A stretch of 64,000 nucleotides of DNA from contig CM114271.1 in assembly GCA_050084515.1 (NCBI GenBank), forward strand, positions 23,808,001 to 23,872,000, in the 5' to 3' direction. The notes under the pieces are model-generated. The model did no database searches. It was not told the DNA's origin and saw nothing but the letters and a program-made list of their open reading frames with translations. Positions 25,015 through 52,800 of the stretch are shown here, in pieces. Both the position numbers and the translations under genes were made by a program. How positions within the stretch are numbered: the first letter of the stretch is position 1; each line of letters begins with the position of its first letter. Origin of the DNA: Blasia pusilla. Its lineage: Eukaryota.

Positions 25015-27540
25015 TTAACCCCTAAAAGCTCAACCTCTTTTATACCATTTCAGCCATTATTTTTTATTTATAATTCGATGTCCCATACTTTTATTTATAG
25101 TTCCATATCCCCCCGTTAAAAATTAATTCCCGCCGCTCAGATTGTAAATGGTAATTTCATGTACGTGGTTGTGAATTTTTATTCCAATAGGATGTGAGGT
25201 GGAAATTTCCCACCGTTGGAATTATTGGGTGCAGTTAGATAATTTTTGTACTCCATTATTTCTTCCCACTTTGGAGGCTTGCCACTAAGTGAGCTTCTAG
25301 GATAAATCAAAACAGTTTTTTTGCATTGGGTTGTTGGAACAGAACTCCACCAACATCCTAATTTTTGAATAATTTCTACCATTGACGTGGAAATTGTACC
25401 GCATAAGGTGTTTGGGGGTATGAACATGATCACTTGACACAAGTGTTACATCTACAATTATGTGACCCTTTCCACACACAAATCTACATACTCATGTGGG
25501 ATTTGAACCCACTAGACTGCCAAATGAGCCAGGAGTTAGTTATATGATCCTTTACACACCCACATCTACATACTCGTGTGGGATTTGAACCCACTAGATT
25601 GCCAACTCAATCAGGAGTCACATCGGAGAGGTGACCAAATCCAAACCAGGTCTCCAAAGGGGATGTAAAATGCTTTCCTATCCATTCAACATCTTTATGA
25701 ATGCATCCATACATTCCAATCATAGCAGAAATGACATGAAAAAGTAAGGTGCCATAATTTAAAACGACCATAAGGAAACAATGAGAAGAATGTCCATACA
25801 TACAAAAGCACCAAATTTCCAACCTGTTAGTGCATACAAAACTTGGCACCGGGTAGAGCCATATGTCCGAAACCATCACTCTTGGAAACAAAATTGTCAC
25901 GACGACATGGAATCTAAACTACTCTCGTGTTGCGACTCGCTTCTGTGCCCCGTGCACTTTGTAGCCTAGAATACTGCCATGGGACTTTAATACATTTGCA
26001 CAACACTTAGTTCGCTCGTGATGACTTACAAAATAACGCCCTATACACATGTGTAATCCTCTACATTTTGGACAACAAAAGGAAGTTCTTGCACCACACT
26101 CAACACACAATAGCCTATTAGGAAGCCTCAATCTATATTGGAAAATTAAGGAAGAATAGATCCCATCATGTGAAAGTTGATGGCTTCGCCTCCTTGACGA
26201 TGCCTTACCCACCAAGCTATCCCCAATATCTAGTAGAAATTTTTGGTGTGTACCTTGTTGAGTTTTGTGACTTTTATAATACATACACCATAAGATCCAT
26301 GCATTTGTTAGAGCACTATCTACGAGACTATCTACACAAAAACCAAAAGATTCGATGCCACCTTTTCCTGTATTTGGTCTGGGTGGAATAAGCGACGCGA
26401 AGCTGATCATGGACATTCACGCCCCTCATAAATACTTGATACTCTACCAACATTGGTGAGTTAGGGACTGCAATGTAACTCTTACTACCTCTATCCCATC
26501 GCATGACAGTAGTGTTCAATCGGACAGGTGTGGGAGATGTTGACAATAAGGCAACCATGTGATTGTCCATCCAAAGGCAAGCAAAAATATGAGTGGTCAT
26601 CTAATCGAATGTCAAGCGATGTGATACCTCTAGCAAATCCTTGAACCTTGTAGACAAACAGTCTAGGAAGAGTCTACACTTGGTAATTTTATCATAGTCT
26701 TTGCTTGTTTTATCCTTACATATGGTCTCATTATTCACTAGATGAAGGCTTCTGAGGATCTCCTCCCACCAATTTCTACTCATAAGGCTAGATATGTATG
26801 GATTGTGAAAGAGCTTATGTTGTGTCTGCCAATGGGATCTCCTAGTCGGGAGCTTGTTGATTCCCATGAAAATAGACACCCCTACCCAAGTTCGGAATTC
26901 TCATCGCTACAAGTTTCTCAATTGGGCACCCTTCAAGTTTTTCCCATAGCTATTAGTCTGTTGGCAGATACGTCTCATATGTTTTTCCTCTCTATTCTCA
27001 AACCAAGTAGGAAAAGGATTAAGATTCTCTCCCTTGAAGGAAGTGTCATGTGTGTAGAGTGGATTATCTCCCTCCCACCACTCATCTGAAAAAATTCCAT
27101 GAGTTCCAATCATCCGGTAGTTGGTACACACCCAACTTGGATAAATCTGACTCTAAGAGCTCGTCCGCATAACCTAGCCACTCTGAGCTCAAATCTGAAT
27201 TTTTTTTCTCCACCTCTAAGTCCCATTCAGACTCAGATTCATCATTGTAGGGTGTATCTTGAATATTTTTTTGATCAGAAGGTAGGCTATGGGCAGGTTG
27301 GGTAAATAGGTTGAAGCCAACTTCCCTAATTTTCAAGGTTTTATCCCCCATATCTACGTCACATGTCGTGCAAAAGGTCTCCACCTCCTTTTCGGAGTGT
27401 GGGAGTCGGATCTTCACTTTAGAGATTGTTGTGAGAAAATGTTGAAACTCATCTATAAACTCACATTTTATCCATTCATAGTCATAGAGGCTTGGGGGCA
27501 AATCTGAATCCTCAAAAGCATCTCTATGGACGTACAACAC
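25015..27540 (-). mobile_element. Degenerate piggyBac-like DNA transposon (internally deleted DDE_Tnp_1_7-type transposase)
   Basis: Minus-strand fragments in the expected order: acidic N-terminus; ICQQTNSY; FMGINKLPTRRSHW..MSRNWWEEILRSLHL..DKITKCRLFLD..LTFD; WMDNHMVALLST; EYQVFMRGVNVHDQLR..Y..KYRKRWHRIFWF; VDSALTNAWIL; and a C-terminal Cys-rich domain CVEC..T..CCPKC..LHMC..YF..HH. A candidate terminus TTAA-CCCCTAAAAGC lies at 25015. The opposite terminus was not found. Confidence 0.85.
25458..25620 (-). repeat. Tandem 82-bp repeat (2 copies), each with a tRNA T-arm/B-box-like motif
   Basis: Units at 25458-25539 and 25540-25620. Each contains gtgggatttgaacccac, which reads GTGGGTTCAAATCCCAC on the minus strand. 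No full cloverleaf is visible. Confidence 0.75.
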
Positions 27541-28649
27541 CCGTACAACTTGGCTTTGCTCATCACAATGGTTTGGATCTTTGGAGGTCGAGGGAAGTGG
27601 GATCTAGTCTGCACAATATTGCCTTCCATGGCTAGCCACCAAGCTGTCCCTTAGAACCATGAATTGTGAAGGTCTGAAGGGGTCTGAACCATAATCTTCT
27701 TTAGATCTAATTGGTATCTATTGGGCTTGTGTTCCACATTTGAGCTACCCTTCTTCACCTTATACGTATGCGTATCTCTAAGGGATGGAGGAGGCAATGT
27801 AGCACAAGGTGCTTCAATGCAGAGAATAATACCTACAATCTGGGAATCCCCTAGACTACCCATGTCTGGCAAGTGGTTCAAGTCTAGAACTTGATAATCC
27901 GTCGATCTATCACCTATCCGATTTTGATGATGGGTACTTTCCAAAGGGTGTTTGGTATATGATGGGATGGCATGGTCTTGGTGGTGAAGTGATTATGTGG
28001 TGGGGCACAAAGGTGTGTAGAAAGGTTTAGTAGATGGTTGGTTGGGCTCATTGGTGGGCTTTTTTTGCCAAATGGAAATAGACGAGTGTGACAATATGAG
28101 AGTGGAGGGTTGGTTTTTGATGTAGAGGGATGATATTTTGTACGTGTATTAGATATTGCAGTTGTTGGGTGATGGGACTAAAGGGGTTGGGTAAATGTAA
28201 CCTTACGAGCTCTGTTTCGTATTTGCCTCAAAGATAGAACATCAAGGTCCAGAATTTGGCTATCATGCACAATGGAATCACATGGAGATTTTTTAGGATC
28301 GTGAGGTAGAAGTCATGATGGAGATGCAATCCTAATAGTTCTAGGAGGGTTCTCGACAAGAAGTTCCTTTTCCCAAATATCTGGAAGCATGGGTAGGTAT
28401 GACCTATATATGGCGGCACACGACGCCCGTGGCCGTCATCCAAATCTTGAGCCCTCTTTACCCGATGCGTTCTAAGCGGATGGCCAAAGCCTAGATGTGG
28501 CGCTTGGATCCCCATAGCCAGCGCCTGATACTTGAATATTTTTTTGATGCCCAAATTTTGGTAAAAAATTGTTTAAAAAAACAAGAAAAAGAGATGTTAC
28601 TTTCCAAAAAAAAAATTTGAATTAATTTTTTCAGCCAAACCTTGTGGAA

Positions 28650-29418: not shown

Positions 29419-30214
29419 TAATCCATCAAAATTTGCTATTTGATGCTTCCATTTTTCAAGTTTATGCAAAGAAATGTCACTAGAATTTTATATGAAGTCG
29501 AAAAGGCCAATCGAGGAGTTATTAAGAAATTTGATTAGGAAGAATCTATGATGGAGAATCAACTCAAGATCATATCAATTAGATGTCAACCCATTTTTTT
29601 CCAAAACTATGAGTTTTATGAAGAATGCATTTATACAAGTTCTTTGTGTATCTAATACATCATCCTTATGAGATAAAGATCAAGTTGAATATAAAGTACC
29701 GAGAAGACAACATGGAAACATCGATCAAAGGAAGGATCTAGCGAAATCCATTATGGCAAGTGCATTCATAGGTAGTTTTATTGTTGAAAATGGACAAACC
29801 ATGCCTCATAGTATATAAGGGACTATGTGATATTCTCATTTCTCTCTAACTATTCATGTTTCATACATGGTTGCATGGAAAGACAAGTCTCGGATCACCC
29901 ATTACCTACCCTTGCGCAGGCAACTTGGGACCTTAATTTTGATTTTTTTTTTCCAATTTTGTACAAAAATTGCATAGAAGTGTGGCACTGATTCCACAAT
30001 GGCCCTCTTCAAATTCAAGAAAACACACAAATAGAGTTACAAGAATTTTCAACCTAACTTTCTACAAGTGTAGACTAAAGAGTGGTTTGAATTTTGCTTT
30101 ATTTATTAATGAAGTTAGTACATAGAAATTGATTTCGTCTCCATACGTTCTCCATTTGGGTGCATGCCTTTGAGTTGGAACTTGTTGTAAAGTCCCATAT
30201 GTCCCTCCATAGGT

Positions 30215-30936
30215 CAAACTTATCCAGAAAAGTTCAGATAAGTTTGTGCATGTCCATAGACACGCTTTCCCGCCCTATGCACAAGTTTTGAGGGAATCCA
30301 CATCGCTTGCGCAAAGCGAGAGTGCAAGGGTTGGGCAAAGGACAATTGGCAGAGTTTTAGTAAGTGGGCACAACATGGTGTGGGATACAAGATTTTTTGT
30401 TTTGTTTACCGACACATCGATCTATCCTTTGCTAGGATAGACATAAGACCGCGTCCATGGACAAGTCCACAGACCCAGAATTTTTTTGCATACAACCTTA
30501 GTGTCATACAAGGTTGGACATAAATGGACAAGTTTGAACATGTCCATAGACATGTGCAACGGTTCACTCGCCCGCGCCCTCCGTGGAGCCCGTCGATCCC
30601 GTAATGTAGGCCTGGCTAGCCGAGCTGCATGAAGCCCGCGCGTAGCCCGCTACAGGCTTGCATGGCTTGCAGGGCCCCCATTGGGCAGGCTGAGGCCCGT
30701 GGGCGAGCCCGCATAGGGCGGGCTCAAGGTGTGGGCTTGTCCAATGGAGGCCTTGCACGCCTTGCAGGCATGAGGCACTCCGCGCACGGGCTTCCAATGG
30801 GCTAAAAAATGGGTGCGGGCTCGACCAGCCCGGGTCTACATTACGGGCTCGGTAGGCTCCGCTGCGGGCTCGGGTGCGGTTCATGGGTACTTGGGCCCAC
30901 ATGGATATGTTCATCCTAGGGATAGACATAAGTCCG
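30215..30936 (+). mobile_element. Two tandem non-autonomous hAT-like elements with a GC-rich palindromic interior
   Basis: Copy A ends ..gcatacaacctta (30500), followed by an 8-bp spacer gtgtcata; copy B starts caaggttgg (30509). Shared subterminal blocks are aagttt...catgtccatagaca (~30240 and ~30530) and ggatagacataag (~30435 and ~30920). The interior of B (~30566-30880) is an imperfect inverted repeat rich in gcccg/cgggc. Outer borders are approximate. Confidence 0.6.
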
Positions 30937-32601
30937 TTTTCACATCTTATTTTGACGTAGGTAGAGTTCTATCGCGTCGCCAACATTGAGAGTCAGCGGG
31001 CTATTTGGATGTAACTTCGTCCCGAGATGTCGGATGAGGTTGGCGATAGGTTGGCATAGACGTGTGTGGATGTGTAGGAGTTAGGATGGTAGCGTCCGGA
31101 TTCCCTCATAGCAGAGGGTGGATGTGGTTTGATATGCCGATGTAGATTCATGAGTGGAGTTTAAGGCCGGGTGAGCAATTTTTACTACTCTTGCTTTTAC
31201 ATGAGAAAGATGTTAGGGGCGTGGTGGGAATTCGTTATTTGTAGGTAGGCAAGCAAGTTTCCTACCTGCAAATGCATATAGAGGTGCATATAATACAGGC
31301 GTTGGTCATTTTTTTGTTCAGAAGGCTGTGTGCGGAAGCGCGATCTGTTTTTCTCAAATTTCGCTAGTGCAAGTTGATAGGGGGGCGGCAATAGAGTGTA
31401 GCGCAAGTTGGGGCAACATGTGGTTGAGAGTGTGTCATTGACGGGTGAGTAGTGAGTGTCGGGAAACATAAAGGACCAAGTTTAGGGCTTGCAGCCGCCG
31501 GGGGGTTGTCAAGTAAAAGTGGCTAGGGCTTGGACTAGGGTTAGGTCGTAGGAGCTAGACCGCACAAATTGGAGGACCGAGATTCATGATGGGTGAGTGA
31601 CGATTCACCATGTGGCAGTCGGATGCGCAAAGGTAGGAGAGAGGCTGGACGGCCGGAAGGGCGAGTGTCGCTTTGAACCGGGGCGGCAAGAATTGGGGCC
31701 AGGCATAGGGCGGCAAGCCGCCCCCCAATGGGCAGTTAAGGCCCATAGGGACGCGGGCCAAGTGCCTGGCCTCTTTTAACCACGTCGTTGGGAGCGCCAT
31801 GGTGGGCGCCTTCTTGACGTAGTAGGTGGGCTACGTAGTCGACACCTAGACGTGGTTGATAGAATGGATGTGGTAGGGTCAGGGTGGTGGATGTAGTAGA
31901 GGCACAGGCAATGTGGTAGATGGGCAGCCATGGTTGGGGTCGAACGTGGTTGAGTTGAGTTACGTAGTGGGAGAGAGTTTGTGAGACTTGGTGTTTCATG
32001 AGCATGGTGGGATTTGCGACGGGAGTTTGGTTGTTATTGCAAGTCGATTGGGGGCCGACTTAGTAGTCCATCATCGATTATGGCTGCGAGGGTTGTGATG
32101 GGGACACACATGTCGACGTTGACGGGAGGTTTGACGTGTTGGTCGAGGAGGGTGTCGTGTTGCGGAGGTTGCCGTACCACATGGAGGAGTGAGTGTTGAC
32201 GGTGCCATAGGTTGGAGGGCGTGATCAGGTTACCCATTCGAGTCCCTTTTCCCGCACTTATCTTGTGTGATTGAGAGTACTGGGTATTGGGTAGTTGGTG
32301 GTGTTAGATGGATGTAGCGATGGTGACGATTGTACACTCCTTTCATGTATAGCATGTTGGTGAATATATGGCGTTTGCCGAGTAGGGGTCACGTGTCTGA
32401 CTTGAGCGTGTCGGTAGTTTAGGTGAGTTAGTTGGGAGGCTCATGGTAAGCCTGAGTGTTGAGTGTGTCATCACGGGATTGACATTAGCGTATGTGAGCT
32501 AGTGAGGAGTTTGGGAGACTCTTGGTGAGTCTGAGTTCTTGAGCGGGTGAGATAAGGTTGTCATCACGGCGTTCTTCCAGGTTTCGGAAGAATGGGGTAG
32601 T

Positions 32602-34837
32602 ATGAGCAGTGATAGTGGAGTGACATGGAGTGGTGTGAGGTATCAAGGGTTTTTGAGTGAGGAACCACCCCGACTTCCATCAGTGGTTGGATCGTCATCA
32701 CTAGACAACGGGTTTGGTGACGAGATCGCAGACGGGGACGCTCATATGTGGAGAGAGATGGACGACATAGACCATCGGGGCATGCATCATTTCTCGGGTG
32801 CCGCAGGCACTATAGATCTTGATGATTTCATCTAGGAGTTTGACACGTGGTGCGACTTTGAGGAGATCAGAGCCCCTTCACGATTCAACCCTTTCATGGG
32901 GTGGAAGGGTCTGTTCCATCATTTAGAGGGTCCTCCAATGGATGACTACATGGAGTTTTGGTCTTTATACTCTATAGATATCAATGCCTGGAGGGTGTTT
33001 TGGGCTCCAGGGTATGTGTCCACTAGTGGCCGCAAGGCGTATGATGGTATATTGAGAGCGGAGAGACCTTCACCATCAACCCGAGGACTAGATGGAGAGG
33101 ATGACAGTAAGACTGGTGAGGTGGGAGAGACCTCTCGTGGTAGAGGACCGCCCAGTTTCAGTCCTACAATGGAGTTCTTTTGATAGTTGGGGAGGAGCTA
33201 TCAAGGCGTGCGGACCAACAAGCTGAAGAGTCTACAGGATTTTCAGCGGAGATCGGGTGAGAGTCTGAGGGAGGCGTTCATGCGCATGGGACAATTGATT
33301 TTTGCCACATATGGGGTGACTGAGGCGCAGTCAGTGCATTATTGGTATGGGGTGCTAGATGGGGAGCTACGGAGAAGATTTTGGGATGCAATATTGCTTC
33401 ACATGGTGAAGCCCATATTGAAGGTGGTCTTTGAGTTTTCTGAGCGGATAGAGTTCAACATGAGTGAGGAGCAGGTGGTGACTACGGGTTTTTTGCGGGA
33501 TTCGACGGGTCAACGAGTAGGAGTAAACCCACAGGTGCCCCAACATGCACCGGTACCACGAGAGTGGGCTAGTGGGCCCAGAGAGCAAGGCGGGTATCGT
33601 GAGTTGATGAGGCAATGACCCGTACCAACATATGTTTCCCAACATGGACAAAGGTTGGCTTGTTGGATGTGTGATGGGTCACATAGGCAAAGGGACTGCC
33701 CATAGCATGGGAGAGGGCCATGGGTTCCTCTGATTGCTCAGGAGCCACAAAGAATGGCCCCACCACAGTTACAGCGTGATCATTGTCACCGATATGGTCA
33801 GACTAGGGATAGGTGTTATGATCTTCGCGGGGAGGTACGTCGTGAGATAGGCAGAGGACTTGGGGGCGAGAGAGTTGGTGGAGATTGAGTGGTAGATGAT
33901 CGTGGTGGTAGAGTGCCATCACCAGTCATGGGAGATGGAGGGCGTGCACCCAATGCAGCGCCCCTTACGCGCATCGATCAGTTGGAGTAGAGGATTGGTA
34001 CCATGACGATGATGTGGCTACAGGCAGGCCTAGAGCTTAGAGTAGCTAGTGTGGCGCTAGCCTCCACATCATACCACAATGTTGGTAAGGATTCTTAGGG
34101 GATGGGATTTATGCGGCGCACGTTCAGGTTGTTGTGGTGGTGACTCGGGGAGCTGCGAGGGTAACCAAGCCATGGAGAGGTGGGGTTGAGATTGACCCAC
34201 AGGAGAGGAGCGATGGGCGGCAGGCCAAGGTTCCCCAATCATTCACATTGTCAGAGGCATTGCATACACCGTTGATGGTGCCTCGACAACTGTTAGTACC
34301 CACAGGTGGGACAAGTGCATCGACGTCAGGAGGAGTTGGAGAGACGACTCTTATGCCAGCTCGGGAGGAGCCAATATTGACCATGTTGTAGGAGGTGGCC
34401 ACTAGGGTGAGCCAGACTCGGTTTTTTCCGCCATGGAGTTGGCGACGTTGGGAGTTGGACCAACAGAGTGTTGCGGCTAGCCGCCACATTATGTGAGCGT
34501 GGAGAGGTGACTGCCTCTCGTTCACAGGTAGTTGAGGAGGTGGTGGACTTGCCCTTGGAGCACGAGCTCAGGACTTCATCCACTGAGTCATGGCATGCGG
34601 CGGCGGCAAAGTTGGTAGATATGCCGGCTAGGCCTGCGATAGAGCGAGCCATGGTCACACCAGGTGTGGTGTTGTTGGATAACCGATCAAGAGTGTTTCG
34701 CTTGGTTAGTCCCACACGTACGATGTACCACTTGCAACGCGTCCTACTTGATTCGGGAGCGCAGCCCTTGATGTTAGGGAAGGCGGCGTGTTTGGCGTTG
34801 GGATTACGGAAAGGCGACATCGAGCGTTGTCCCTTCA
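32602..34837 (+). mobile_element. Degenerate Ty3/Gypsy-like LTR retrotransposon gag-protease region
   Basis: ORFs 32602, 32896 and 33187 share one frame broken by stops. They contain a retrotransposon gag motif (LQDFQRRSGESLREAF), zinc knuckles CWMCDGSHRQRDC (33661) and degenerate RDHCHRYGQTRDRC (33775), and an aspartic protease motif VLLDSGAQPLMLG (34741). No RT or integrase follows, so the superfamily call is tentative. Confidence 0.8.
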
Positions 34838-35344
34838 TATATGGGGTCCTAGTGTATATGCGTGAGTATCTTTCATTTATGTGTGGATCTACCCGTATGT
34901 TGGGAAAGATCGGTGTTGTGTGGTGTGTAGATGTGACCAGAAATATGGGTTGTGTAGCGATGTGTATGCGCACCACACCGGAGACGCGAACTTTTTCCAT
35001 GTCCAATCTTGGTGTCATATCTTGATGGGTAGATGTTGCAACACATATGCATGTCTTTAAATGGAGTTTTGAATGTAGTGGTTATGGATTCCATCATCTT
35101 AATGAAGCAATCTTTTTCAAATCTTTGCCTTCAATTGAGGTCTCATTGTGCAATTTCGCATTCGTTCTCCTGTGTGCTAGGATCTCCAAGGAAATTATAA
35201 TATGGTGTTGTCATATCTTCCAATCCCTAGAAAAGGATGGGTTTTCCATGTCAAATAACCAAAATGAAACCAATGAGAATATTTGGCTTTTCACAAGGGC
35301 TAGTGGGGTTGTGTTTATAGATACCATTAGAAAGTTTAAATCCC

Positions 35345-35475
35345 TCTTGAAGGATCGATAGATGTAGTCAGATGGAGATCAATCAGACTACATCTATCGA
35401 TACTTTAATAACTTTGTATTGTGATCCTCTAGTCTGATTGATCTCCATCTGACTACATCTATCGATCCTTCAAGA
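35345..35475. repeat. Perfect 46-bp inverted repeat with a nested 16-bp inverted repeat
   Basis: 35345-35390 is the exact reverse complement of 35430-35475. In addition, atcgatagatgtagtc (35354-35369) pairs with gactacatctatcgat (35386-35401). Confidence 0.95.
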
Positions 35476-36836
35476 TAATACATTAATAACTTTGAGCAAA
35501 TTTTTTTAAACTAAAATAGGTTACTAATATCTAAATATAATCTTTAGAGAAACGTGAGACAAAACACCCAAAAAAATCAATCTACATTTAGTTCTTCAAA
35601 AGAACCCTCCAACATAACCCTTGGGATGGGGCACATTGATCTCCTACACTTTTAATTCTCAGTAGTGTAATGGGTTTTTTTGTTATAGCATCTTCTTAGA
35701 TTGTGCCTTTTTTTAAAAATCCGAAAATAAGGAGAGCTAAATGTCTGCATGGGATGCACATTTTTTGGCATTTTTCTCACCTCCATTGCAATTATTATGA
35801 CAAATACTCTAGCTAGAATAATTTTCACATTAAAATATACAAGCGTACTAGTTTTTTTAATTAAAGAAAGTAAGGATCTATTTTCTTGATTTGTATTCCA
35901 TCCATGTTTGGCAACTAAAAAATATCTTATAAATAATAAATTTAATATAGAATAGAATTCTAATACTTGTAAATCAAGTACTATTGTACTAGTAGTGTAA
36001 TGTACTAGTACAATCTAAATTTGTGTTGTGTGTCATGTTAAATCTTCTATGAATCTTTTTCTTATGTTACTAGGAAATATGCGATTGCTAAGCATATGTC
36101 ATGAAGTGTTTGAATGAGTGGGATAGAGGTAATGGAGTGGTGGAATTTGGGTAATTGCCAACTGTCACTAATAATTAATTCCCTAATATCCAATTAACTC
36201 TTGAGATACAATACATGATCAAAATCATACTATTAAGGATGTCAGCCTTGGTTAAGATGCTCCCAATGAACGCCACATGTGAAGCCTTTCATTTTTTGTT
36301 TAATTTTGCCTATACTAAATTAAAGTTTGAATAGGAAAAAGCTTTTAATAGTATAACTTTTTAAAAATAAAAAAAAATATTATCTTCATGAAAACATTGT
36401 GAGACTTTTTCATAACCAATTCATTTTTGAAATAAAATTCGTATTTAAAAATTTAAGAAAAAATCTAAAACTTTTAATTTCAAGTTTATTCTGAAAGGGA
36501 AATTACATATTAATTTATAAATATGTAATTTAGCGGAAGGGAAATTACATATTACTCTAGCTATGAGGGATTTTTAAAGATTATTTTGAGACAAACTTTG
36601 GATCAAAATGAGTGATCCATTTTTTTTTACTTATTGAGAGATGAGGGTTAGAAAAATAAGGATAATTCATTTCTTTTTTAATTAATAAGGGGAAAGATAA
36701 GAATTTTTTAAATGAAAATTATATTCTTATAATTATTCATATATTTAAAGGAAAAATTATCATCACTATTTATTTATCAAATCTATAATTTCAACCTATG
36801 TCTTATGTAATGACCTCATATTGTGGTTTCATGCAG

Positions 36837-39800
36837 GAGTCACACGATGGAACTTGTAGTAGGTTGACGTCTGAGTGTTCAGCGGTTGGTGACTCAAAAC
36901 TTAGAAAAGTAGTAAACACTATCCTCGGGAATGACTTAGCCATTGCACTCAAAATATCAGATTCTGACGACTCTAAACGTTATTCAACAAACAAATGTGT
37001 AAATGCACAGAAAAATGATACGTCTCAAGCTCCACCTGGAGCTCCAGTGTCTACAAAGCCTGCGGCTTTGGCAAGAAGTACATCGCTGAAGAAAGCTGCT
37101 AGCCACAATATGAAGGGAGAACGAACACTGACATCTCTGGGACACGTAGAGTCATCGCGTCGCAGGCTTCTATGGGAAATGTGACCGAGAAAAAACACGA
37201 AATGGATCCCACGTAGAACAATATCAACGACAGTTGGAGACTCCAGTAGTTTGGACGCTTCTCCGGAAATTTTAGCTGTAAAACCTTCAAAGAAAAAGAA
37301 CCATAATAACCCCTCCCTAGCATATGGAACATCTCTAGATAGTACTGGCCCAGAGATCTTGTCCTTGGTAAGACTCAATCGGCATCTTTTCTATCATGGG
37401 TTTCACACAGACTTTGATCATGCCAGAAGAGAGTTGAGATTTCTAGTGGGTGGTGGTTCCATAAAGTCGAGCATGGAGATTAAACCTCTTTGGAAACCAT
37501 TAGGGAAATGAGTTCGGAAATTAGATCTTTGGATTCTAGCACCTGGGGGAGCTTGAAGTGATAGTCATTTTCATTCATATCTTAATCGAAACTTCACTTC
37601 CTATTCATTCCCTTGTAATCATCTTCTATCAATTGTATTATGAAGTGTAAGGGTTTTGCCCTTGCATCCCTTCAGCACACGAGAGGTGCAGTAGTAAATA
37701 GAATGTTACTAGTCCGAGAGTTGAGGACTTTTATTTTCATGTTGTGTTTCATTTTCTCCTACAACCTTGCATCGCCTTTGTATTTCTGTATGATTCTTTT
37801 GATTCTGATGAAAGAAATGTCTGATGCAGACTCGACCCTGATCTGGTAAAATCATGTTGCTTTTTGAACCGCACGAGGTCCTGCTTTTTTGCCCTGCTTA
37901 TCGAAACTCTAGCAACTTGAAAAGTTTTAGCATCAGACCAAGGTGTGGAAATTTTCTCCACGCAGCCAGTGATTACTTTGCTTTGGGCCTATGGACATGT
38001 AAGAATGAAGATAGTTTGGCCACAATGGAGGCTGCAATTTTGGAGCACTTACAAGAGAGGAATCTTCCCCCGGTTGGGTTCACTTTGGTTCGTGCAAATG
38101 AGAGTCTATGTGGAGGTCGAGCGGCTATATTCAAACTATTGAACTATTTTGACGAGGCAAAAAGACGTTGGCTGGATTTGGATAGTTAGCAACAGATTTA
38201 TTTTTTTTGACGTGGTTGGAAACGAGAACCACCACAATAGTGTCCAGCATTTTGTGAAGGTGCCAAAATGGAAGGCATCATCGTCAAAGGATAGTTTTCT
38301 CATGACAGTGTTGACACATTATGTCGAACTGCTGCGGCTCAACATATCCAACGGCCACTTCGAGACTCCGTGGAAGTTCATTTGACAATGCAATTTGCCC
38401 TCTTATTGTAGGAAGGTAATGTGAATTTCTACCCAGTGTGAACTAGTCTTAACCAATCTTACACGTGTAAATTTGGGATTGTTCCTAATACTGAAATGTT
38501 TCGCAGAGCCTAGTGATTACCGACCCTACTATGAACCAAAGGAGCCTGCTGCGAGTCAAAATGTTGGACATCGATCTTCAGGCACAAAGGTAAGCACTGG
38601 CACTGTGATAGTTCAGTGAATGAATATTTCGTGATAGAACTATAGTTCTAATTCTCTCTTTGAGAGGCTAATATCTTACATTGGTTAGTGGATGGGTGAA
38701 ATCCCCTAGGCCTCTTCTTATCCTCGAAATTGACGGAATTATTTTCCAAATTATCGACAGGGTTAGCAAACCGTATCCCCTTGGTCTTAGGGGAAACAAT
38801 GCCTTCATGTCGGGAGATGGACGGGTTGTATTTGTCCTCCCCTACGTCAGAACACTAACTGACATGATAGAGAGAGAATATGATTATGGGTTTTGGACCA
38901 TGAGGAATAGGGAAGATGCACTTGAAATGCTTGAGAGGCTAGCAGATTCCTGCTATTTGTCTGAATCTTTTGTCAAGAAGGCCAATTTTCTTTTGTCTGT
39001 GCGGGACTACTGTGTTCAAAAGGGACAAAGGGTCTCTCAAAGTATGTGAAAGATGTGCGGTTCTTTTACACTGTTAGAGAGTTTAGAAACTTCTCTTGCC
39101 CAAAGAATATAGTCCTGGTGGACATTCGGATCAATTTCCTCCTTTTGAATGATTCAAATAGCGTTATAGCCCTTCCAAAATTTAATATACTTCCACAACC
39201 CCAAGACGAAAAAAAATCATTGCGAGGCGGGTACTATTCTCTCTTACCTTCTGATAATGAAAGAGAGTTTCCTCGATGGGATGAGTGTGAGCCATTTTAT
39301 TAGTATTGGGTGGATTGGTTTTCCAAAGCCATATTCTACTGGCGGTAATGGTAAACGTCTTCTCCATGCAATCCACGAAAAGCTAAAGTCCTCAGTCTTA
39401 TTCCAGAATGTACCTGGACAGCAGACCCACACAATATGCAAGGAATGTCCAAGAGTGGAGATCACTGCATAAGTCATCTTCGGCACCTTGGATCAGATAT
39501 CAGTGGAAGCTGCGAGGCTGGCATGAAGTATCAATGCCTTCATGTCGGGAGACGGGGGCTCGCTCGTACGCGAAGTGGGAAAATCAGTTTGGTTTCAAGG
39601 ACATTGTTGATAAAAGCGGCTTCGTAGATCTGGAGTCCGTAGCAGGGTAGAGTCAGAAGGGTGGACTGTCATTCGGTGACTACATGGACACCAACATGAG
39701 CTTTGTGGGTTATGTCTCCCTCCCTTATATTTATGAAGTTTTCCCTCATGGTGCCATGCCAGATGACAGCATGGACACTGTGTGGAATGAAGTGATGAAG

Positions 39801-40405
39801 TGGTGCACTTCGAGGGAACCGACAAGGTGTTTATCGTCATCCTCCATGACCATCACTTTGTGCTAAGGGTTGCAGCCAAGTCGATCACTATTGTAGATAC
39901 TTCAGGTTCCCGCCTGGATCGGGAATGTAAGAAGGCGTACCAAATCTTCTTCGACTCCAAGGCGTCTGCTGTGGTGGATAACGTATTCGACTATTCGATC
40001 AAAGGGAATGATCTCCAACAACCACCGGAACAGTGCTTGCTGGTGACCGGGCAAGAAGTTGCCCATTTTTTCCTTGACAAGTACGGCCTGCACGAACTGA
40101 AGCATCGTCTTTTCAGCTACATCATTGAAAAGGCTAAGGACTGGGATGTGGATTTGCGCACTTTGGACGAGGAGTATCAGAAGAATAATTACAATATAGT
40201 CATGTATAGCGGGAATTGTAACCTATTGCAAAGAATGGAAGCTAAGATTGCGAGAACTATAACATATTGCAGAAAGTGGAAGCTAAAGATTGTGAAGCAA
40301 TGTGATTGTCAGGGATATTTTTTAATCATCCCGGATTGGAACTTGAGTTCCAAATCTTATATATTCAATGAGCTTATTTATTGTCATCTAATGATCGTGC
40401 AATGA
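36837..40405 (+). pseudogene. Disrupted multi-exon gene: low-complexity N-terminus, two FCP1/NIF-like (HAD) domains and a Ulp1/C48-like cysteine protease domain
   Basis: NIF-1 (37854-38385): MLLFEPHEVLL..IRPRCGNFLHAASDYFALGLWT..IFKLL..NRFIFFD..N..VPKW..KDSFL..L..YVELL. NIF-2 (38681-39270): PLLILEIDGII..VLPYVRTL..EYDYGFWT..KDVR..KNIVLVD..LLNDSNSVIALPKF..ILSYLL. Ulp1-like (39590-40100): DKVFIVILHDHHFVL..ITIVDTS..LQQPPEQCLLV. Candidate splice sites include AG at 36836, 37829 and 38507 and GT at 38417 and 38590. There are several stops and frameshifts. Confidence 0.65.
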
Positions 40406-40477: not shown

Positions 40478-41077
40478 CAATTGGAATTGTAGCTCCAATA
40501 AGCCTGCTCCTAAGATTCTTTTGTCGGAAAAAAATTGTAGAATCAGAACTTTGGTTCTGATTGTGGTTCTGCCGCGCCCGTGAGAAAGTCATTTGGAGCC
40601 AAACTTGGACTATGTCCAATTCAATCCTAAGATTCAATAGGAATCTTAGGATTCTCCATCTTCGATTGGAACTGTAGTTCCAAATGGCCTAGTCCTTGCA
40701 TCCCAATAGGTTGGCAACATGTAGAATCAGAACCTTAGTTATAATTGTGTCCAAAACTTCCGCGTCCGTTGAAGGTTATTTGGAGGCAAACTTAGTCTCA
40801 ATCCAATTGAATCCTAAGATCCAATTTCGTCGCAGAAGGCACCTGGTAAAGGGAAATCCCTATCCTCGATTGGAACTGTAGTTCCAAATGGCCTGCTCCT
40901 TGCATCCCAATAGGTCGGCAACATGTAGAATCGGAACCTTAATCAGACCTATTGGGATGTAAGGAGCAGGCCATTCGGAACATGTAAAATCAGAACTAAA
41001 GTTCTGATTTTACATGTTCGAAGACCAATTGGGATGTAAGGCTCCTTACACAATCAGAACTAAACTTCTGATTGTGT
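40478..41077. repeat. ~190-200-bp tandem repeat (about 2.5 copies) ending in a cluster of inverted duplications
   Basis: Units begin (c)gattggaactgtagttcc at ~40478, ~40664 and ~40867. 40946-40981 is the reverse complement of 40881-40916 (2 mismatches). 40978-40997 and 41000-41019 form a perfect 20-bp hairpin, and 41048-41077 forms a 12-bp hairpin. Confidence 0.85.
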
Positions 41078-46752: not shown

Positions 46753-47987
46753 TTGATTGATTGAGTGATTGAGAGAGAGAGAGAGAGAGAGCACTCATTA
46801 CATAGTGCCTGTCGTAGCCTTGCGACCATAGACCTCGTGCCCTGGTTAGACGGTGCTTGAGACTAGGATAGGTATAGAGAGAGAAGCAAGTGAAGAAGGT
46901 ACCATATGAGAGGAGGGAGAGACTCTCATTTAGTATGACTGCTGACTAAACAACGTGTTTGTGCAGAGCTTCCAAGTGTCAACAAAGAAACTCTTCATCA
47001 CACCATCTAGTTTACCTAATTGGGATCCCCAATAGATATTACTTACCAGTGCAGCAGTTTTGGGCAATGAATCAAGGCTACTGAATATGTTGAACAATTC
47101 TGGTGCTACCAGCTTAGCAATATCAGCATATGCTCTTGCTCTATGTGTTGTGAATTTTGCGCAGGAGACCAAGTAATGACTAGAGGTTTCATCCCCATTG
47201 TCACACAAGGTGCAAGAGTTTAGTTGTGTTCCCATCCTACTTTTCTTATGGTTCAAGGGGATTGCCTCCGTTCTGAACTTGAACTTGAGTCGGGTTCCCA
47301 AGCAAGGGGTCCCTGTGAATGATTCTTCAGTTCTGCCTTCTCAGGATATACTGTCAAAAGAGAGAGGTCAGACATTTTTATGGCTTCCTCCATGTTGTTC
47401 AACTGTGAGTGTTTGCCTACTACTTTGGTTACGGTTATCAACGAATGCTTTCTCATCTTGCTCCCACAGTTCAGCCCTGCTGGGAGCTTGGATGCTTGCA
47501 CAATCTCTTGAACCTTTTTCGTCCAAGATTTGGCCTACTTTACGGGTTTTCTTTGGGTCCAAGTCTTCCCCATCACCTCTTTAGGATAGCGATGGGAGTC
47601 CATTTTCTCTAGCTAACTCCGTCATTTCAACTTGGCGATGTCACGTCTATCCTGCAAGGGCTCCACACCAAGTTCTGATCTCACACCAACTCGGGTTGTT
47701 CGTGAGGAAGTTGACATCATATCTCGAGACGCCTTTAGCTGCACAACTTCAAGCCTATCCCTTTGTTTGGTGTTGGCATCCCACATTGCTGCCCCATATT
47801 CCAGCGAGGGCCGAATGGTATGCAAAATGACAGAGCGCTTTACTTCTGATGTGATGTCCCGGCAGTGTAGGAATCTGGACAGACCGTTCACCTTCTTGTG
47901 GCCTTTCTCAGTAGTCTTCTTAATGTGTGCATTCCACATGCAATCTTCCGAGAATTCTATGCCCATATAAGTGTATGTAGCCACACG
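46753..47987 (-). mobile_element. 3' part of a non-LTR retrotransposon (LINE) ORF2 with a microsatellite tail
   Basis: RT end/thumb: YTYMGIEFSEDCMWNAHIKK..IRPSLEYGAAMW..LEVVQLKASR..VRSELGVEPLQDRR. C-terminal CCHC: CTLCDNGDETSSHYLVSC. The stop is at 46930. The 3' UTR ends in (TC)10 plus TCAA repeats (46753-46790). Stops and a frameshift are present. Confidence 0.88.
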
Positions 47988-48575
47988 CAAGGTTGTATGC
48001 GGACAAAGCGTTAAGGGACTTCTCCCTGTCCGCAGACATATATTCGTCCCTAGGACAGACATGTCCGTGCGGGCTCCATGAGCCCGCGTTGCCCGCGGCT
48101 CTCATCCAGGCCTGTGCTCATCGAGCAATTCGGCCTTTCCCAGCCAAAGCGCATCATGCCTTGCCCCTATTTTTTTGTCAAACCCTTGTCACGGACAAAT
48201 TCGGTCGTGTGGCGCCCTCTCATTCTTCGCTTTAGGCCTAGCCTGCATGCAGGCTCTAGGGCCTGCATACATCCCGCGCGCGAGCTTTGTGGCCCGCGAC
48301 GAAGCCCGCGAGCCCCCGCCCCCGCCCCCGCGCCCGCATAGGAGCTCGCATGCGGACCTGCCATAGCCCGCGTGCCGCCGGTGAGCCTGCAAGCCCTCCG
48401 CCCCCACTCCCGATGGGCTCGTTGTAGCCTTCCATTCCCGTGAACCCCGCGGGGACACGTGGCGGCCTGGGAGTGGTTGGGGCCAAGTCCGAACTTGGCC
48501 CCAACTCCCTCCCCTTCCCCCTTTTTCCCCTTTGGGGTAAAACCCATAAGGGAAGGGCCCACAAGGGGCCCCAAA
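47988..48575 (-). mobile_element. Third copy of the GC-rich hAT-like element (inverted), abutting the LINE break point
   Basis: It starts caaggttgtatgc; 47989-48000 is the exact reverse complement of gcatacaacctt (30488-30499). 48015-48075 aligns to the reverse complements of 30430-30470 and 30892-30935, mostly with transitions. The interior is rich in gcccg. The right border is approximate. Confidence 0.6.
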
Positions 48576-49175
48576 AATGTACAGATGGGGGGAGTTAAAT
48601 AGGTAATTACCTAATTATCACTTATTTTCCATATTTATCCAGATTTTTAGTGATATTTTGGATTAGACTCCAAATTTTTATGGTGCCTTCAGAGCTAAGG
48701 GCTTTTAAGGTTACTAGGAATTTTGGAGAAATCCCTTGGATGCCTTTTGGGAGTACTTGGATTTTATTTGGGACCAACTTGGATATTTGCGCTCCTTCTT
48801 ACATCTAAAATAAACTCCAATTGACTCCACATTAGGTGAGTGTTTATGAGTGTGGAAATCTCTTGTTTCACTAAACTTGTTTGGTGATTTTGAGATTTCC
48901 GATTCATAGACTCGAGTGTTTTGACTTGATCCATTGGTTATCCTTAGCACATCAGGGATGTGGAGGTGATCAAGGAACCTTGTCTAAACACACCCATATC
49001 TACTTATTTCCTTTGAGAGCCCAACCCTAAAATTCCATCATTCACACGCTGGTACATTTCGAGCCATTGTTTTAGCATCTCACATCATTCTCTTTTCGGT
49101 ATTTTCTTATCTCAACACGTACATTTCTTTCCCTTGTATTTTTTAAGATATTATTATCTTCTTCATCCAAGGGAA

Positions 49176-50667: not shown

Positions 50668-51645
50668 ATGGAGTTGCCACCTCATGAAGATCTTAGCCCT
50701 CACGACAATCAGGACAACAGAAGAGGGGAAGAACCCCCCGATATACCAACACCAAAGATCCCTCTGAAGGTGAACAAGAAGACAGTCTCGTAATTCATCA
50801 CGGAAGATGAATTGAAGGCGCATCTGGATAACACCATTGACCCACAAGTTTTGAAAGGAGGGTTCAAGAAGTCGCGGCTGAAGTGGCTTGAGTGTGCGAT
50901 TAGAGAATTTGCAAGGAAAATGGAAGAGAATGACTAGACAAAGGATTGGGCTTTATTCAATGGCGTCCCAAAGTACAAAGACCTCCCCAAGAGAAAGATG
51001 AAGTTAGTGAGCAAGGTATTTGTTCAGCTCAAAGTCGCGGAGTTGATGAAGGATATGGAGGTCCAGTATGGCGATGTGGATGAGGGGTCTTCAAAAAGAG
51101 ATAAGAGACCAAGAGAAGAAGACAGTCGAACCCCACGGCAACACTTTAAAAGAGCAAGAGTGGAAGCTTCATCACCACGAGCCTCCTCACGCCATTATCA
51201 GCAAGATGGATTGTTAAGAAGCCTTAGAGCCATACTATCTTTCTTGGATGGTCAAAGAAGAAATAGTCGTGCTGAAGAGTATATACAAGACAAGAGTGGA
51301 GATGAAGGGTGAGTAGAGATGAGAGCAGAGGATAGACAAGATGGTTTGAATGACTTCTATGTAGATCATAGTACGAGCTTTGATGAGCCCGGGGGGAGTT
51401 TTGATCCCCCTATACATAGTAGTGCTCCTCCCCAAACCTTTCGCGGTGAGAGTGCTTCGGATAATAGCGAGGTAATGTCTCGTTTATCACAGTTGGAGAG
51501 TTTAATAACAAATTCCCAACGCAATTTTGATTTGGCCGTGGAATTCAATGTTTTGAAGGGGAAGTATGAACAGCTATCTGAGGAGCACATCAGATTGAAG
51601 AAAGAGATGGAGAGGTTTTCGCACTGGAGTAGTTGCACCGTCTAG
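50668..51645 (+). pseudogene. Unknown ~325-codon gene (charged, C-terminal coiled coil), disrupted by three in-frame stops
   Basis: ORFs 50593/50668, 50998 and 51319 share one frame, broken only by TAA, TAG and TGA. There is a basic NLS-like stretch (SKRDKRPREE..HFKRAR) and a heptad-like end (LSQLESLITNSQRNFDLAVEFNVLKGKYEQLSEEHIRLKKEME). Confidence 0.55.
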
Positions 51646-52800
51646 TTGGGTTCGTCCCAGGTTCAACCCTGTGGTTGAGTTCTTTGCTGAGTTGAGGGCG
51701 AGCTACCAGGGGGTACAGACGGAGAAGTTCTTTAGCATCCACAACTTCCAGAGCCGCCCGGGTGAGAGTTTACGTGAGGCTTACACTTGCTTGCGCCGGT
51801 TGATCAACGTCACTCAGGGGGTGATAGAGGCTCAGGCTATCCAGTCATGGTACGCGATGCTGGACCAGACCCTGCGGACACGGGTGCGGGAGGGGGTGCT
51901 TCTTATGAACACCTCCCCTACGTTGAGAGATGTTTTTAGGACCACCGAGAACATTGAGCGCAACATGGCGGAGGAGAGCGTAGCCACCATGGGTTCTGGG
52001 CGAGAGGAGTCACGATTGTCTGCACCACCTGTGCAACAACGTGGACTCAAGATAGGTCGATGCGGGCACCACGAGCTCGGGGAGGATATCGAGAGGCGTG
52101 CCCACGAGACTGCGCCTTCATATGCGGCTCAGCAGCAGCCGCCTACTATTACTTGTTGGTCATGTGGTGGAGCCCATCATCAACGCGATTGCACTCGTCA
52201 GGGTCATGGACGTGTGCCTCAGCATGGAGGAGGAGATGGTGCTGCACCAGGAGGTTATCAGTGTGACTATTGTCAGAGGTATGGTCATACACCCACAAGG
52301 TGTTTCAATTTACATCCTGAGTTACGTCCGGACCGAGGGCCAGAGAGGGCATCAGAGCGAGTAGCCGGTCCAAGTGGGCTAGAGATCGTGCACCAGGTGG
52401 TCCCGTTGGGGGACGAGGAGCTGGAGATGCCCGACAGGGTGGTGGAGCTGCTCGTGGAGGAGGTAGAGTCCAACCACCTAGACGCATCGAGGGAGATGCC
52501 GGACGTGAGGCTAGGATGGCTGCTTAGATACATCAGCTACAAGAGCAGATTGCCGCTATGGCATTGAGATTACCCGATGCCGGATCCATGGCATCGACAT
52601 CATATGGAAGAGCTAGAGATATGGAGGATCCTGGTTGGATGTGTGGGGTTGCGCAGATGGAGGCATCCACAGTTGTGACGCGTGGAGCAGCCGCAGAGTT
52701 GGATCCATAGCGAGGGGAAGCCAGGAAACAGACTAGGCTTCCTCGGTCTTTCATGTTGTTTGAGGCGATGAGGACCCCATTGATGGGTCCTGATCAGAGT
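51620..52800 (+). mobile_element. Second Gypsy-like gag fragment, same family as 32602-34837
   Basis: FNPVVEFFAELRASYQGVQTEKFFSIHNFQSRPGESLREAY aligns with FSPTMEFF..RSYQGVRTNKLKSLQDFQRRSGESLREAF. Zinc knuckles are CWSCGGAHHQRDC and CDYCQRYGHTPTRC. The downstream VVTRGAA..DP..LPRSF.L.EA.RTPLM block is shared with copy 1. Confidence 0.85.

Follow-up and report, generated by a model that had tools for sequence, protein, structure and literature searches.

What protein did a disrupted coding block of Blasia pusilla once encode, and was its gene part of the host genome or the cargo of a transposon? The block (36,837 to 40,405, + strand) lies in a 64,000-nt stretch that was analysed in full and is called the window here (GCA_050084515.1, contig CM114271.1, positions 23,808,001 to 23,872,000). 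It had been annotated as two inactivated NIF/FCP1-type HAD phosphatase domains, followed by a Ulp1-like protease and embedded in transposon debris. This copy of the locus is dead: stop codons and frame changes are seen in the sequence, so it is a pseudogene from which no functional protein would be made. On balance it is taken to be the pseudogene of one gene that joined two probably inert NIF/FCP1-type HAD domains to a cysteine isopeptidase of the DUC type.

Coding character was assessed from the lengths of open reading frames (ORFs). On the + strand of the 36.8-40.2 kb block, ORFs of at least 70 aa totalled 1372 aa, compared with 222±123 aa (maximum 541) in 300 composition-matched shuffles; on the opposite (-) strand of the same block they summed to 564 aa. 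Inside the locus, ORFs of 100-204 aa persist. The GC content of the block is 40-47%, and AT-rich spacers of 20-34% GC lie at 35.1-36.9 kb and 41.1-42.0 kb, with a climb from 20-34% to 42-44% at ~36900. The motif-bearing pieces are spread over three frames of the + strand (numbered as position mod 3) and had to be stitched. Nine translated pieces of the locus were scanned with Pfam and matches were reported to E≤1. The five strings quoted in the initial annotation (FEPHEV, LEIDGI, ILHDHHFVL, IVDTS and QQPPEQC) were all found where it had placed them.

The C-terminal protease domain

The 204-aa ORF at 39791-40405 was searched with phmmer against 1.84 billion cluster representatives. One protein, P0002, was the sole true match (E=9.2e-4); a second, P0001, was rejected as spurious, being a bacterial repeat protein matched over a 19-residue stretch. 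BLASTP aligned the ORF with P0002 over 95 aa at 34% identity (E=2e-11). The P0002 protein corresponds to the C-terminal region of a large plant family with 1308 matches, whose full-length members are ~630-820 aa long; an NT-C2 domain (PF10358) is present at the N-terminus of most, and some bear the label 'like AT3G11760'. AT3G11760 is AtDUC2, and DUC (deubiquitinase with C2) is a newly described class (bioRxiv 10.64898/2025.12.04.692294). A local DUC profile (hidden Markov model) was built from 35 family members and run against all ORFs of the window. The locus ORF was the sole significant match (E=1.2e-10), and the next best reached E=4.4. When the frame break at 39789-39804 was read through, with an X at the break, the profile score rose from 37.4 to 43.4 bits and the alignment reached profile position 385. 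With hhalign the probability was 96.8% (E=2.3e-10) over 68 columns at 44% identity. Eight DUC-family proteins, five of them full-length with the NT-C2 domain and three C-terminal fragments, were used as tblastn queries against the window; the match was confined to 39699-40060 and paired 39699-39821 with 39824-39958.

Two stretches of the + strand were assigned to the domain from these searches. The first (39699..39788, frame 0) is the helix region SFVGY...FPHGAM..SMDTVW, placed by the read-through profile, hhalign and tblastn. The second (39805..40198, frame 2), placed by phmmer, BLASTP and the DUC profile, holds the catalytic core and the C-terminal part; the open frame beyond 40198, to 40405, is probably a non-coding tail. 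ILHDHHFVL (39839-39865), IVDTS (39890-39904) and QQPPEQC (40016-40036) are all in frame 2. The His (39851-39853) and the Asp (39896-39898) align with the invariant H194 and D209 of the family member P0041, at a spacing of 15 as in DUCs, and the DUC-conserved stretch ...REC..AYQIFFD follows the core Asp. By eye, EQCLLVTGQEVAHFFL pairs with the VVCxGKExCKEYIKSFL helix of DUCs, and the Q..C of QQPPEQC, which lies 3' of the Asp, with a conserved non-catalytic DUC Cys (C293 of P0041).

The N-terminal half of the domain (39304..39698, +) was likewise assigned by eye, and frames 1 and 0 are both open across 39387-39624. Here FVDLESV (39621-39641, frame 0) resembles the DUC-invariant FDLETV, as SFVGY resembles SFIGF. 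The Cys of a candidate Cys box, ...SGDHCISHL, is encoded at 39466-39468 in frame 1, another frame than that of the core; its spacing to Trp, Asp-Lys and His is DUC-like by eye and is without statistical support.

The domain had first been assigned to the Ulp1/C48 proteases from its order of H, D and Q..C. That assignment did not hold, as Peptidase_C48 (PF02902) matched none of the nine pieces and the relatives found are DUC enzymes; a cysteine-isopeptidase-like domain placed after the two NIF-like units is what stands of the proposed domain order. AtDUC1 has a papain-like fold and a Cys-318/His-441/Asp-456 triad, defined by a crystal structure and mutants, and the catalytic Cys of DUCs lies ~123-127 residues upstream of the His (bioRxiv 10.64898/2025.12.04.692294). 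Because the Cys precedes the His in the homologous family, the protease domain is not placed in clan CE. As read from its sequence, the C-terminal domain is homologous to DUC deubiquitinases and not to Ulp1.

Fold comparison was made with an AlphaFold2 model of the DUC domain of P0041 and not with the window's own piece. The model was modest (predicted local distance difference test, pLDDT, 57.7). In a Foldseek search of the PDB, all five matches at E≤0.001 were VTD or cytomegalovirus M48 deubiquitinases, with 8add at rank 6, AvrPphB at rank 8 and low TM-scores (0.25-0.50). Among the matches listed were VTD, M48, AvrPphB, ZUFSP and Josephin chains and no Ulp1, SENP or adenain chain. The structures reported as nearest to DUC are the VTD deubiquitinases (8ADD, from a zebrafish Helitron), then AvrPphB (bioRxiv 10.64898/2025.12.04.692294). 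No solved structure of a DUC turned up when the copy of the PDB searched was queried with the P0041 domain sequence.

Identity of the core to DUCs is 34-46% in the best-conserved stretch. Long ORFs survive and yet identity is this low, which argues that most of the divergence predates decay. The parent appears from its sequence to be a distinct, distant DUC-like gene and not a canonical DUC. Pfam found no C2 domain (PF10358) in the 9 locus pieces or in the sets of 150 and 105 ORFs of the window that were scanned.

Two NIF-like units upstream

Upstream of the protease domain two units were read by the motif I-IV definitions of the SCP/FCP1 enzymes. Unit 1 begins at 37842..38186 (+, frame 0), where FEPHEV (37863-37880) stands in the place of DxDxT and is followed by RPRCGNFL and GLWT, with the motif II Thr. 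It continues past a 1-nt break at ~38187 into 38188..38382 (+, frame 1), which was assigned by eye and carries FIFFDVV (38197-38217). Unit 2 begins at 38696..39018 (+, frame 2), where DxDxT is replaced by LEIDGI (38723-38740) and GFWT supplies the motif II Thr; its second part (39035..39300, +, frame 1), also assigned by eye, carries YVKDV (motif III Lys) and IVLVDIR (39109-39129). The motif order read by eye is a hydrophobic strand with FEPHEV, RPRCGNFL, GLWT, ..IFKLL.. and FIFFDVV in unit 1, and LEIDGI, GFWT, YVKDV and IVLVDIR in unit 2.

On this by-eye reading, Glu occupies the nucleophile-Asp position in both units, and the motif II Thr, motif III Lys and motif IV Asp are colinear. The nucleophile/general-acid motif DxDx(T/V) is absent from both, and the DD of motif IV is reduced to a single Asp in FIFFDVV and in IVLVDIR, as had been noted at the outset. 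The loss of DxDx(T/V) counts against an active enzyme and leaves a pseudo-enzyme of the NIF fold possible, to judge from the motifs.

Family membership was examined with Pfam and with a language-model atlas. Initially PF03031 had been expected twice, and PF02902 with it. PF02902 was not found in the Pfam scan; PF03031 matched one of the four NIF pieces (37842-38189) with E=0.021, residues 22-60 falling on positions 30-68 of the 160-position profile. In the atlas, scores below 0.9 are leads only and 0.93 is within the range for true family members. The top three neighbours of unit 1 carry PF03031, at scores of 0.86-0.87. For unit 2 the best neighbour shared 194 features and scored 0.93, and the PF03031 set accounted for 28 of 30 matches. 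The claim of two NIF/FCP1-like domains is upheld by the positions, by the replaced nucleophile motif and by the atlas, and is left without backing by NCBIfam and the PDB and by a Pfam score under the cutoff. NIF-likeness of moderate strength is indicated by the sequence, above chance and short of proof, and two NIF-type pseudo-phosphatase domains are quite probably present.

A probable single gene and its decay

The pieces lie on one strand within 3.4 kb and in one compositional block, which favours a single gene, and it is likely that all of them are remnants of it. NIF-like domain 2 ends at ~39300 and a DUC domain needs ~125-190 aa before its His (39851), so that a second promoter could not be fitted in between. 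A Ser/Lys-rich, low-complexity, coding-like region (36798..37511, +), identified in a single frame from the sequence and its ORFs, lies at the 5' end, with candidate ATGs at 36798, 36810 and 36831 and an AT-rich, promoter-like spacer 5' of it. Pfam gave no credible family for this region; the sole match was Borrelia_P83 (E=0.016; 14.1 bits, where the cutoff is 33.6). Candidate GT-AG introns, as first annotated, do exist. A short linker exon candidate (38506..38589, +) was read directly between an AG acceptor (...tttcgcag) 5' and a GTAAGC donor 3', and is followed by a candidate intron at 38590-38688 (+; gtaagc...ttag). The frame 3' of this intron fails to join cleanly, which is a further break.

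The intact product would have been ~900 aa long, with disordered Ser/Lys-rich sequence at its N-terminus, then a pair of NIF/FCP1-type HAD domains and a protease at the C-terminus. With Asp replaced by Glu at the nucleophile (ExxH.., ExDG..), the HAD domains would most likely have been catalytically inert. The protease would have been of the DUC type, a cysteine isopeptidase with a papain fold and a Cys-His-Asp triad. By analogy with the C2 domain of DUCs, the pseudo-phosphatase domains may have formed a targeting module that directed deubiquitination, one that probably bound phosphorylated partners.

At least eight disabling lesions were found, which bears out the disruption noted initially. 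All lie on the + strand. Two are in-frame stop codons, a TGA (37182-37184) that interrupts the N-terminal region and a TAG (39648-39650). The reading frame also changes near 37831-37850, at ~38187 (one extra base), at the 38689 junction and somewhere in 39387-39624. Two more breaks coincide with 8-bp tandem duplications, each with one mismatch. The first (39019-39026 and 39027-39034) shifts the reading from frame 2 to frame 1 within NIF-like domain 2; with one copy removed, the reading continues ...CVQKGLSKYVKDV... The second (39789-39796 and 39797-39804) shifts it from frame 0 to frame 2 in the DUC-like domain; with one copy removed it reads ...VWNEVVHFEG..., which matches ...IWDEISH... of DUCs. 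Removing one copy of each duplication thus restores readings that fit the family consensus across the junction. Such duplications may stem from slippage or be footprints of transposon excision. Footprints of the hAT type were considered and set aside, since the locus has four 8-bp duplications against ~1.6 expected, only two of them at frame breaks, which is not significant. The whole window has 29 loci of 8-bp tandem duplication, compared with 17 (9-24) in shuffles.

Several results weigh against one gene of this composition. In the protease domain, ~76 of ~300 catalytic-domain positions align significantly to DUCs, and upstream of position 385 the DUC profile picked up nothing of the Cys-bearing half. 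Where DUCs have the Phe gatekeeper, directly after the aligned catalytic His, the locus has a second His (D-H-H-F), with Phe one position on; a slip of one residue in the alignment would satisfy the gatekeeper position. The splicing that would join the parts is predicted from GT-AG candidates in the sequence. In the NIF-like units, the PF03031 score of 15.0 bits is under the Pfam gathering cutoff of 21.8 and three of the four pieces had no match. NCBIfam matched none of the four (six pieces scanned, nothing relevant), and phmmer of both NIF pieces against the PDB returned chance matches only (to titin, an antibody and ribosome recycling factor). No significant similarity of the two units to each other was seen with BLASTP; a local alignment paired the motif II stretch only, with a score equalled by 14 of 500 shuffles. 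The AlphaFold2 single-sequence model of the first part of unit 2 was unusable (pLDDT 39). Word-index protein searches with the NIF2 piece gave 120 candidates with none at E≤0.001 and 4 candidates with none at E≤10. Since no relatives of the NIF part were found, conservation of Glu for Asp is indistinguishable from decay; for the DUC-like part, too, the protein searches yielded no closer relative. A tblastn match of NIF2 in phage records was dismissed as chance (a single match, E=2).

These negative results would be expected if the NIF-like reading were a false positive and only a lone, diverged DUC-like pseudogene were real: a single sub-threshold Pfam match is all that profiles gave, NCBIfam, the PDB search, BLASTP between the units and AlphaFold2 lent nothing, and the atlas scores of unit 1 stay among the leads. 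However, two adjacent and independent pieces were drawn to the same one of ~25,000 families (piece 1 by Pfam, pieces 1 and 2 by the atlas), piece 2 in the range of true members. Motifs I-IV are colinear in both units, and the upstream frames are far more open than chance allows. A false positive is accordingly considered very improbable.

A second alternative is a chimera, in which transposon-mediated capture or rearrangement placed remnants of a DUC-type gene next to those of an unrelated phosphatase gene, without the two ever having made up one functional protein. It would account for the frame breaks of the junction region and for a 24-nt segment (23/24 identical) that was copied there, to 39532-39555 in the frame-change region of the protease domain, from 38797-38820 in NIF-like unit 2; it may be filler DNA from a repair event. 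An undetectable Cys-bearing half is also what a captured fragment would leave. Both parts, however, are too diverged for recent capture from a host gene, the DUC core by its identity and the NIF part by being undetectable with BLAST and phmmer, and long ORFs persist despite that divergence. By eye, DUC colinearity also runs on upstream, through FVDLESV and SFVGY, at DUC-like spacing. Such a chimera is judged improbable, if a little less so than the false positive, and the pseudogene of one gene with two NIF-type domains and a DUC-type domain is retained.

A wider reading of that gene was also considered. It would represent an undescribed DUC branch, in which the membrane-binding C2 domain was swapped for two tandem, 'substrate-trap-like' NIF domains with Asp changed to Glu. 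The result would be a deubiquitinase guided by phospho-readers and maybe spread by a transposon, in the way that Helitrons spread VTD domains, with intact, expressed copies elsewhere in the genome or in relatives. This is put forward tentatively.

Possible transposon carriage and known systems

It had been proposed that a transposable element carried the gene. In its present form this proposal holds that the gene is or was the cargo of a DNA transposon, in which a deubiquitinase targeted by pseudo-phosphatase domains would protect the element or counter silencing. Parallels were proposed in the VTD and OTU domains of Helitrons and in the Ulp1 domains of Mutator-like (MULE), CACTA and Ginger elements. 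DUC is structurally nearest to the VTD deubiquitinases, and most non-viral VTD homologues reside in Helitron ORFs (PMC9741609). The window is rich in transposon remnants (piggyBac-type and long interspersed nuclear element, LINE), a unit resembling a miniature inverted-repeat transposable element (MITE; 40536-41073) abuts the 3' end of the locus, the copy is decayed, and no annotated relative was found in the protein libraries searched, which is common for transposon genes.

The flanks speak otherwise. The locus has no transposase, RepHel or integrase within 6.5 kb of it, nor was one found on its own strand; recognisable transposon proteins come no nearer than ~10 kb on the upstream side and 6.5 kb on the downstream side, in both cases on the - strand. 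None of 105 flank ORFs (48-85 aa) gave a credible family, and among 150 ORFs of at least 86 aa transposon-family matches occur only at 26.3-26.9 kb and 46.9-47.3 kb. Neither terminal inverted repeats nor long direct ones were seen to bound the block in a bounding-repeat search or in self-BLAST of the two flanks. No second copy or fragment of the locus is present in the 64 kb window, and the flanks are AT-rich and gene-like. The proposed carriage was not borne out, neither transposase nor termini linking the locus to an element having been recovered from the sets of 150 and 105 ORFs and the repeat searches. The parent was a host gene or transposon cargo; carriage found no support in the tests run, is plausible given the VTD and OTU domains that Helitrons carry (PMC9741609), and is held here to be rather unlikely.

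Other features of the window were recorded. Remnants of a piggyBac-type transposase lie at 25610-27603 (-), with DDE_Tnp_1_7 (PF13843) at 26604-26900 (E=1.2e-15) and 26331-26600 (E=6.4e-5) and a Cys-rich C-terminal ORF at 25922-26416 (-). A LINE-like remnant lies at 46933-48614 (-), with a zf-RVT match (PF13966) at 46933-47340 that is under the cutoff (E=1.6e-4); the long ORFs neighbouring it on the same strand gave no Pfam family. The MITE-like unit has 25-27-nt terminal inverted repeats (40536-40565 with 40988-41014 and 41049-41073, 92-93%) and internal direct repeats with ~204-bp spacing and palindromic cores (40653-40737 and 40857-40941, 92%). An inverted repeat with perfect 46-nt arms around a 39-nt loop (35345-35390 / 35430-35475), which could be a small hairpin element or foldback, lies where a GC-rich block borders the AT-rich spacer. 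The GC-rich block (30000-35100), which is unclassified, has 51-56% GC and a sustained and strongly positive GC skew (+0.19 to +0.32), ends abruptly at ~35.1 kb and gave no protein family on either strand. A 322-aa open frame at 51599-52564 (+) has a gag-like look, with two CCHC-type zinc-knuckle strings seen by eye and no Pfam match at E≤0.01. A probable host-gene exon at 953-1237 (+) matches RNA pseudouridylate synthase (PF00849, E=3.6e-6, above the cutoff), the only non-transposon family match outside the locus. Scanning the window for Rfam families and tRNAs gave no match.

The combination of tandem NIF-like pseudo-phosphatases with a DUC-type domain and no C2 does not appear in the DUC preprint (bioRxiv 10.64898/2025.12.04.692294), and a literature search for the architecture turned up no paper pairing 'FCP1 homology' or 'NLI interacting factor' with its other terms. 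If the proposed protein is correct, the DUC fold was recombined with a different targeting module, and the locus would offer a natural example of HAD pseudo-enzymes in an adaptor role. If the gene was mobile, the link between transposons and deubiquitinases, made so far for VTD, OTU and Ulp1 domains, would take in DUC as well. The copy is dead and unique among the data searched, so its value is that of a lead for a genome-wide search and not of a functional finding.

DUC enzymes are the closest known system. The class was described in December 2025 as plant-specific, with a fixed architecture of C2, linker and deubiquitinase domain and, by the authors' account, no further protein-interaction modules; its members include AtDUC1 (At2g25460), AtDUC2 (At3g11760), AtDUC3 (At5g04860) and PpDUC (bioRxiv 10.64898/2025.12.04.692294). 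Canonical DUCs reach the plasma membrane via the N-terminal C2 domain, are K63-specific and have a Phe gatekeeper directly after the His; NT-C2 is found in all embryophyte members, and algal members without C2 are noted (bioRxiv 10.64898/2025.12.04.692294). The locus shares a homologous His/Asp core with its preceding helix, the His-x15-Asp spacing and the ...GxRLxxxC..AY..FD stretch, and by eye FDLE[TS]V, SF[IV]G[FY] and the C-terminal Cys-helix are colinear. It differs in having two NIF-like units before the domain in place of NT-C2, a His at the gatekeeper position and no identifiable catalytic Cys, and in being a pseudogene. Its identity to DUCs is also far below that between the Arabidopsis and moss DUC domains, which are 47-60% identical over ~300 aa (bioRxiv 10.64898/2025.12.04.692294).

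VTDs (PDB 8ADB/8ADC/8ADD and 2J7Q, from Helitrons and herpesviruses) have a Cys-Asp-x-His site without a gatekeeper (PMC9741609; bioRxiv 10.64898/2025.12.04.692294). In the locus the His comes first and the Asp 15 residues on, there is no sequence similarity to VTDs, and no RepHel lies nearby. With Ulp1/SENP proteases (C48, clan CE) the locus would share the role of a cysteine isopeptidase for a ubiquitin-like modifier, and its H...D...Q..C is superficially similar, with Ulp1-like spacing. Ulp1-like genes are carried by plant MULE (Kaonashi) and CACTA elements. They are also found in Ginger elements (PMC2836005). Unlike Ulp1/SENP, the locus has no PF02902 match, and the family to which it is homologous combines a papain fold with a catalytic Cys that precedes the His.

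The NIF-like units resemble NIF/FCP1/SCP phosphatases (PF03031) in the motif I position, RPxxxxFL, [FW]T, the Lys and a hydrophobic strand with Asp, all colinear. They differ in that DxDx(T/V) is replaced in both, so that phosphatase chemistry would not be expected, that they are in tandem and fused to a protease domain, and that they fall below the Pfam cutoff. An inactive relative of NIF/FCP1 is known in TIM50. UBLCP1 combines a ubiquitin-like domain with an active NIF-type phosphatase and has no protease. The locus would differ from it in pairing predicted-inert units with a protease domain; what the two would share is a NIF-type domain tied to the ubiquitin system within one polypeptide.

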